NCBI GenBank assembly: GCA_951406725.2
Contig: OX597817.1
Coordinates: 72,788,001-72,852,000, forward strand
From: Octopus vulgaris
Taxonomy: Eukaryota
Direction of reading: 5' to 3'
Length of the DNA: 64,000 bases
The translations under genes and the position numbers were made by a program. The notes beneath the pieces are model-generated. The model ran no database searches. It saw nothing but the letters and a program-made list of their open reading frames with translations, and was not told the origin of the DNA. The first letter of the stretch is position 1, and each line of letters starts with the position of its first letter. This document shows positions 3,024 to 63,716 of this stretch, one piece after another.

Positions 3024-3452
3024 TCAGGAGTCTTCATACACAGTGTCCACTTCCAGTGGTAATTTGTATGACATCATCCAAACACCAGAAAATATGCCAA
3101 ATGCACCCAAAGCCCATGCAGTGTAAGTGCTGCCAACTAGAAAGAGCAGAGAGTTAAGGGGCATAAGGAAGATGACCAGTTTCTCATTCAGTCGAATTTC
3201 GTCAACCCAGAGGATGCTCCACAAGACAATATAAACAGGTGTTGTGATGAAGATGATGATGAGTTCCATTGCACTTCGGATAGAGCTGCTAAGCTCAGCA
3301 GTAAACCAGATGTCACAATGAAGGAAGGTTTGAATCCAAAGTATGAATGCTACTGTGAAAATTGTGGGGACTGTCTGGTTCTTGTTGCTTAACCGCTGTA
3401 ATATGTGACGGTCTTTCTGCAGACAAATTAGAATGACGGAGACACCACAATA
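3024..3452 (-). CDS. NEF1-like terminal coding exon: YCGVSVILICLQKDRHIL...YKLPLEVDTVYEDS*
   Basis: Acceptor ttatatttgcag|TAT (phase 0); TGA at 3026-3024; within ORF 3024..3473. Confidence 0.9.
   Translation of the reverse strand, partial: YCGVSVILICLQKDRHILQRLSNKNQTVPTIFTVAFILWIQTFLHCDIWFTAELSSSIRSAMELIIIFITTPVYIVLWSILWVDEIRLNEKLVIFLMPLNSLLFLVGSTYTAWALGAFGIFSGVWMMSYKLPLEVDTVYEDS

Positions 3453-63716: not shown

Follow-up and report, generated by a model that had tools for sequence, protein, structure and literature searches.

A gene of Octopus vulgaris almost certainly encodes a member of the NEF1 membrane protein family known from plants

The window analyzed here is a 64,000-nucleotide (nt) stretch of the Octopus vulgaris genome (contig OX597817.1, positions 72,788,001 to 72,852,000), an AT-rich animal DNA with simple repeats that carries on its minus strand most of one gene. 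Profile comparisons indicate that this gene almost certainly encodes a member of the NEF1 (NO EXINE FORMATION 1) family, as the initial annotation had proposed from short sequence segments; NEF1 of Arabidopsis is At5g13390. The reference proteins were those of Vanilla (P0080) and Chara (P0087), both named automatically by UniRef, with Arabidopsis NEF1 itself outside the comparison set. A search with the last exon matched the uncharacterized RefSeq protein LOC115211136 of Octopus sinensis (P0001, 932 aa) at 100% over the query, together with proteins of O. bimaculoides and Argonauta and two further ones. A hidden Markov model (HMM) built from 23 animal-type sequences (16 with animal names and 7 grouping with them) matched Vanilla NEF1 at E 2.6e-59 over HMM positions 29-313 and 333-926 of 937, and picked up all 19 non-animal-type test proteins, each at E <= 2e-19. 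The reciprocal HMM, made from 19 non-animal-type sequences, matched P0001 at E 1.4e-48. HHalign of the profiles with Vanilla NEF1 gave a probability of 100 and E 7e-60 over 890 columns at 17% identity, a colinear alignment running from an N-terminal F-x-Y-N motif to the last helix, in which the NEF1 segments listed in the initial annotation stand in register (ERLLFACIP, LPRPSSF, WELN, YPSYMIM..GLTMVRRL, PAVGNV, and ILLLLNQD in the Vanilla protein). Real sequences scored 160-218 bits, whereas 5 reversed and 100 block-shuffled controls all fell below -13 bits; since these composition-preserving controls score negative, we rejected shared hydrophobicity as the source of the likeness. As a single query at the scale of the library, the in-window part did not get beyond E 3.2 with Vanilla NEF1, so that the motif match attained significance only through profiles.

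Searches with other resources named no competing family. The word-index protein searches returned cephalopods only (5, 4, and 4 proteins), which marks their sensitivity limit. Nothing exceeded the Pfam cut-off for ten single exons or for full proteins, and no family-relevant match passed the curated cut-off in 23 animal-type and 18 other members, apart from an RWP-RK match in a fused model; a sequence search of the PDB gave 0 matches at E <= 10. Neither Pfam nor the PDB sequences thus offered a better match to a known animal membrane protein family, or placed the protein among known transporters, flippases, or scramblases. In the ESM Atlas, P0001 scored highest with a 'No exine formation 1' cluster, at a value of 0.87 that is below 0.9 and makes this a lead only; a plant query gave 0.80. 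Two members (P0100 and P0118) bear an RWP-RK-type N-terminal piece and are likely fused gene models.

Comparison of the animal and plant NEF1 groups revealed that both have an all-helical polytopic build without a Pfam family and share the motifs W-x-x-L-Q-F, E-x-x-L-F, S-S-F, E415/K464, P-x-x-G-N, and L-x-x-D. The animal forms are shorter (~910-990 aa vs ~1050-1250 aa in plants and protists) and lack the hydrophobic insert that the plant and protist proteins have near residues 305-335. The last five residues of plant and protist members form a conserved G-x-K/R-Y/F-I-type tail that is missing from animal members; at a guess, it might be a sorting signal. The N-terminal extension is acidic in molluscs but Ser-rich in plants, and the octopus, unlike the plant hosts of NEF1, has neither plastid nor sporopollenin.

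The exon model was obtained by mapping P0001 onto the window and then choosing splice sites. The gene comprises 19 coding exons and 18 introns; 15 exons lie in the window between 63716 and 3024, bounded by GT donors and AG acceptors except at the intron described below, with the stop codon at 3024-3026 (Table 1). The first 148 residues are encoded by 4 more coding exons located 13-92 kb past the window end. The in-window product of 784 aa equals P0001 residues 149-932, barring the two substitutions N480S and V608I. The 15 exons do splice into the stop-free 786-aa product of the initial annotation when the nearest AG is taken at every acceptor; the contig evidence shortens it to 784 aa. All 19 genome matches fall in one ~153 kb locus, indicating a single copy, although weak paralogs could escape this stricter first-look search.

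Splicing was examined on contigs from four sequencing runs with four study codes, whose RNA nature is the tool's guess, no run being recorded as RNA. These contigs reveal splicing, neither its level nor its strand, and were placed on 19500-27300, a region with 4 of the 14 in-window junctions. The four junctions were seen in 4/4, 4/4, 4/4, and 3/4 runs, confirming the predicted junctions there except for one acceptor shifted by 6 nt; for the remaining 10, support comes from canonical splice sites and from the matching RefSeq model P0001. The 'WSIN' segment of the initial annotation reads WSIK, followed across the contig-defined junction by LF. At 20730 and 20678 all four runs differ from the window letters, the former being A>G on the coding strand and matching N480S as in P0001 and P0002. 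These are likely alleles or a strain difference, though they may also reflect editing. In the O. bimaculoides RefSeq model P0002, exon 6 is swapped at residues 188-232 for intron-derived sequence that is also present in the window (frames 62925-63098 and 35684-35848), likely a mis-prediction.

Table 1. Coding exons and the GT-AT intron in the window, and the DEX1 locus elsewhere in the genome (residues numbered as in P0001)
Feature	Position	Strand	Details
Coding exon 5 of 19, first in window	63601..63716	-	residues 149-187; invariant E151, P159
Coding exon 6	39558..39750	-	residues 187-251; conserved P-x-x-S-S-F motif
Coding exon 7	35116..35194	-	residues 252-278
Coding exon 8	27505..27680	-	residues 278-336; conserved R288
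Coding exon 9	25665..25741	-	residues 337-362; junction on contigs
Intron, 1068 nt, GT...AT ends	24597..25664	-	donor GTATCCTTTAAC; branch-like TCCTTTAC 10 nt before end
Coding exon 10	24454..24596	-	residues 362-410; start 24596, not 24602; contigs
Coding exon 11	22458..22554	-	residues 410-442; invariant E415, Y424; contigs
Coding exon 12	20639..20843	-	residues 442-510; invariant K464; contigs
Coding exon 13	19779..19893	-	residues 511-549; contigs
Coding exon 14	10944..11091	-	residues 549-598
Coding exon 15	9190..9337	-	residues 598-647
Coding exon 16	8404..8540	-	residues 648-693
Coding exon 17	6175..6331	-	residues 693-745
Coding exon 18	4840..4974	-	residues 746-790; conserved N766
Coding exon 19, last	3024..3452	-	residues 791-932 and TGA stop; conserved D804, P862, P888
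DEX1 ortholog, intronless 673-aa open reading frame	L006:2637-4658, octopus genome G000, contig C3	-	PF23722 and FG-GAP

The shifted acceptor belongs to an intron that is likely of U12 type and removed by the minor spliceosome, judging from its sequence and ends. Contigs in 4/4 runs unambiguously join 25665 to 24596, so that exon 10, the sixth in the window, begins 6 nt later than first modeled, the intron has GT...AT ends, and the product is 784 aa long. The U12 consensus has an RTATCCTT donor and, 10-20 nt from the 3' end, a TCCTTRAY-like branch point, and the donor and branch point of this intron fit both; GTATCCTTTAAC is the sole GTATCCTT among the RTATCCTT matches on both strands. Gene models are led astray by an in-frame AG that precedes the true acceptor by 6 nt, and the Argonauta model P0003 carries two extra residues there. 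GT-AT ends form a rare known class; Table 2 of PMC1557818 gives them for 7 of its 66 non-canonical U12 introns.

The phyletic mapping called for in the initial annotation revealed family members in six invertebrate phyla, plants, and four protist lineages. A 4-sequence cephalopod profile, run with HMMER against 1.84 billion representatives, yielded 156 matches at E <= 0.001; 30 of the 150 matches listed were looked up, of which 23 carry an organism name, and many of the other 120 are fragments. The 23 named matches comprise 17 invertebrates (6 molluscs, 3 annelids, the brachiopod Lingula, 1 nemertean, 4 echinoderms, and 2 cnidarians), 2 streptophytes (Vanilla, E 7.5e-11, and Chara, E 1.1e-9, both 'No exine formation 1' in UniRef), and 4 protists (Luapelamoeba, Spironema, Artemidia, and Willaertia, which belong to Amoebozoa, Hemimastigophora, and Discoba). 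Among these 23, none is a vertebrate, arthropod, nematode, fungus, or member of the stramenopiles, alveolates, and rhizarians (SAR). By these sequence matches, the gene is ordinary across many invertebrate phyla and no cephalopod oddity.

Trees were built with FastTree (43 rows) and IQ-TREE in quick mode (21 rows, other near-full-length rows being omitted for speed), and both are unrooted with long branches. In both, a branch with support 100 sets all animal-type rows apart from the others; they lie outside the green group, and the order within the animal side runs from cnidarians through echinoderms to annelids/brachiopod and molluscs. A 1068-aa protein (P0054) with a long branch stands at the base of the animal side. 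The single copy and the congruence of the unrooted tree with the species indicate one-to-one orthology. Since the gene tree tracks animal phylogeny, it argues against transfer from plants; vertical descent from early eukaryotes with repeated loss is the simplest reading, and we consider it very probable that the gene was inherited vertically and is older than animals.

Analysis of the AlphaFold model (predicted local distance difference test 90.7, predicted template modeling score 0.77) showed 31 long helices and no soluble domain, and 54% of the in-window residues are hydrophobic. If helix 526-538 is taken as interfacial, loops rich in K/R take turns with loops poor in K/R, leaving 30 crossings in a positive-inside pattern. 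The protein is thus predicted to have ~30 transmembrane (TM) helices, several of them short (16-18 residues), with both termini cytosolic, short loops, and no soluble or catalytic domain; its N-terminal part (~33-305) would form a conserved helical bundle, and its C-terminal part (597-920) an array resembling helical repeats. No N-glycosylation sequon is conserved (at most 5/46), and HHalign self and segment comparisons found no internal repeats. Foldseek gave 0 matches at E <= 0.001 for the whole model and the N-terminal domain, and VIA-align gave no significant match for the whole model; within this scope nothing with a transporter or flippase fold turned up. The weak fold lists consist, mostly over residues 597-920, of TPR/HEAT alpha-solenoids and designed helical repeats. 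These are soluble, the octopus protein has no detectable sequence repeat, and the matches reflect a common arrangement only.

We pursued DEX1 (DEFECTIVE IN EXINE FORMATION 1; At3g09090), another primexine membrane protein, as a second lead. The octopus genome contains a DEX1 ortholog on another contig, unlinked to the NEF1 gene (Table 1), with a PF23722 score of 89.7 bits (cut-off 27, E 2e-25) and FG-GAP_3 at E 2e-16. It combines the FG-GAP propeller and PF23722 sandwich of the DEX1 family with a signal peptide and one C-terminal hydrophobic TM helix, both recognized by eye from the sequence. An open reading frame with a reverse-transcriptase zinc finger (zf-RVT, E 6e-9) lies ~1.1 kb upstream, at L006:5779-6888. 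An oyster annotation already names DEX1, and none of 46 candidate relatives in metagenome contigs was confirmed. DEX1 is not homologous to NEF1, being a single-pass type I protein with a lumenal propeller and sandwich, but resembles it in plant mutant phenotype, presence in the octopus genome, and lineage pattern. In the PMC13261697 supplement, the DEX1 orthogroup is scored to the last eukaryotic common ancestor (LECA) and is found in 18 of 31 species: 3/11 Amorphea (Dictyostelium, Nematostella, and sea urchin), 2/2 excavates (Euglena and Trypanosoma), 0/5 SAR, and 13/13 green plants, being missing from vertebrates, fly, worm, rotifer, and yeast. This published pattern mirrors the NEF1 sequence matches described here. 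According to PMC7063588, PMC5889017, and PMC3220415, dex1 and nef1 mutants alike have abnormal microspore membrane undulation and mis-deposited sporopollenin, and sterol esters are lowered in nef1 (PMC12346373). DEX1, too, has been described as a 'novel plant protein'.

Beyond homology, distribution, and predicted topology, everything that follows is what we infer. We give even odds to NEF1 being a non-plastid membrane scaffold, old within eukaryotes, whose core binds or moves lipid and which likely works with DEX1 to organize membrane for an extracellular coat. The scaffold would act at ER (endoplasmic reticulum)/secretory or plasma membranes, where its hairpin array may clamp single-pass partners such as DEX1 with its lumenal FG-GAP propeller, and the conserved intramembrane charges E151, R288, E415, and K464 may line a site that binds or moves lipid. 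The pair would set up a membrane patch on which the coat is laid, and the failure of primexine in plants would be one particular consequence. That the two proteins share a pathway seems to us about an evenly balanced proposition, and direct binding to DEX1 is a more doubtful one. Equally tentative is a single, undescribed LECA-age membrane complex made of a ~30-helix protein, its fold as yet absent from the PDB, and a lumenal propeller subunit; plants, amoebae, discobans, and many marine invertebrates would have retained it, and vertebrates, insects, nematodes, and yeast would have lost both subunits together. Of the general membrane or lipid-transport function suggested in the initial annotation, the general part is strengthened: the named protist relatives lack plastids, and members in plastid-free protists and animals support a non-plastid, non-sporopollenin role; for the transport part, the fold searches described above brought up no transporter or flippase fold.

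Several points weigh against the scaffold reading. Reviews call NEF1 a plastid membrane protein; the host and several named relatives have no plastid, and because plastid-free animals and protists carry NEF1, it is the plastid location that is questioned and not family membership. The suggested absence of NEF1 from vertebrates, arthropods, fungi, and SAR is drawn from the 30 matches looked up among the 150 listed, and the co-distribution compares different species sets, 23 named NEF1 matches and a published 31-species table. Shared patchy loss is, moreover, common among unrelated LECA genes. Among the rows examined of PMC13261697, DEX1 is alone in its co-fractionation cluster and no entry is named NEF1. 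The dex1/nef1 phenotype is also common to tde1, abcg26, and sec31b, so the likeness is not specific. Finally, one of the predicted lumenal loops, that following helix 24, equals the cytosolic ones in basicity.

In an unlikely alternative, NEF1 would act by itself as a transporter, flippase, or scramblase with a new fold, its function being unrelated to DEX1. Its ~30 TM helices without a soluble domain, the invariant intramembrane charges E151, E415, and K464, the plant lipid phenotype, and short helices of 16-18 residues that could thin the bilayer would all suit such a protein, but it lacks the internal sequence repeat that usually marks secondary transporters, and for its C-terminal third the best fold rows show helical-repeat scaffolds, not the compact bundles of transporters. 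We think it improbable that NEF1 pairs with DEX1 in an ER complex for the biogenesis or quality control of a class of surface proteins, with the lipid defects being secondary. The ER membrane protein complex (EMC) and the glycosylphosphatidylinositol (GPI) transamidase have a multipass core and a lumenal propeller subunit, an architecture that the NEF1-DEX1 pair resembles, and the rice FG-GAP anther protein PL1, which we assume to be a DEX1 ortholog, points the same way. PL1 is reported at the ER and plasma membrane in the text searched of PMC7139555, which does not name DEX1. However, no EMC, oligosaccharyltransferase (OST), or transamidase chain matched structurally among the fold-search rows shown, and there is no client evidence. 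Slightly less probable still, the N-terminal bundle may be a membrane sensor or receptor module like the TM domain of membrane adenylyl cyclase, with the rest a scaffold; the match to that domain (PDB 8sl3_A, 9% identity) lies within the chance range for helical bundles and is absent from the Foldseek rows, and the octopus protein has no cyclase domain. Horizontal transfer from a plant or alga, or likeness by hydrophobicity alone, is very remote: the low pairwise identity, the weak single-query match, and the patchy spread in animals would fit it, and the unrooted, long-branched tree formally allows a transfer before the cnidarian-bilaterian split, but the negative controls, the 18 introns, and orthologs in six invertebrate phyla, whose tree follows that of the species and lies outside the green group, oppose it, and on these last grounds plant-to-octopus transfer was rejected.

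Elsewhere in the window, broken intronic frames at 41603-42716 (-), 32500-34926 (-), 58816-59580 (+), and 3926-4342 (-) resemble, by eye, LINE (long interspersed element)/RTE retrotransposon remains; two of them were scanned and gave no Pfam match. A 99-aa frame at 16280-16576 (+), which resembles the end of a mariner transposase, has no Pfam match at E 0.01. Intronic repeats at 20970-21220, 22880-22890, 23640-23790, and 25750-25845 show very deep contig cover with loose ends and are likely high-copy elements resembling short interspersed elements.

For twenty years NEF1 has been cited as a plant-specific plastid membrane protein of unexplained mechanism behind male sterility. Family databases such as PANTHER may already group its animal and plant members. 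The literature searched, judged at title level, ties NEF1 to plants and algae only and never to animals, a Chlorella homolog being already noted in PMC4928020; the animal proteins are public but uncharacterized, and the family itself is known. With orthologs in animals and protists that lack plastids, the plastid-envelope reading loses ground, and NEF1 shifts from a pollen gene to a cell-biology problem likely of LECA age, one that becomes tractable in amoebae, algae, sea anemone, and sea urchin rather than in sterile anthers. With its confident ~30-TM model and no significant match in the PDB, the protein is of structural interest in its own right, and the likeness to DEX1 supplies a concrete candidate partner. 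Together, NEF1 and DEX1 suggest what is likely an ancient cell-surface-building system and not a plant invention.
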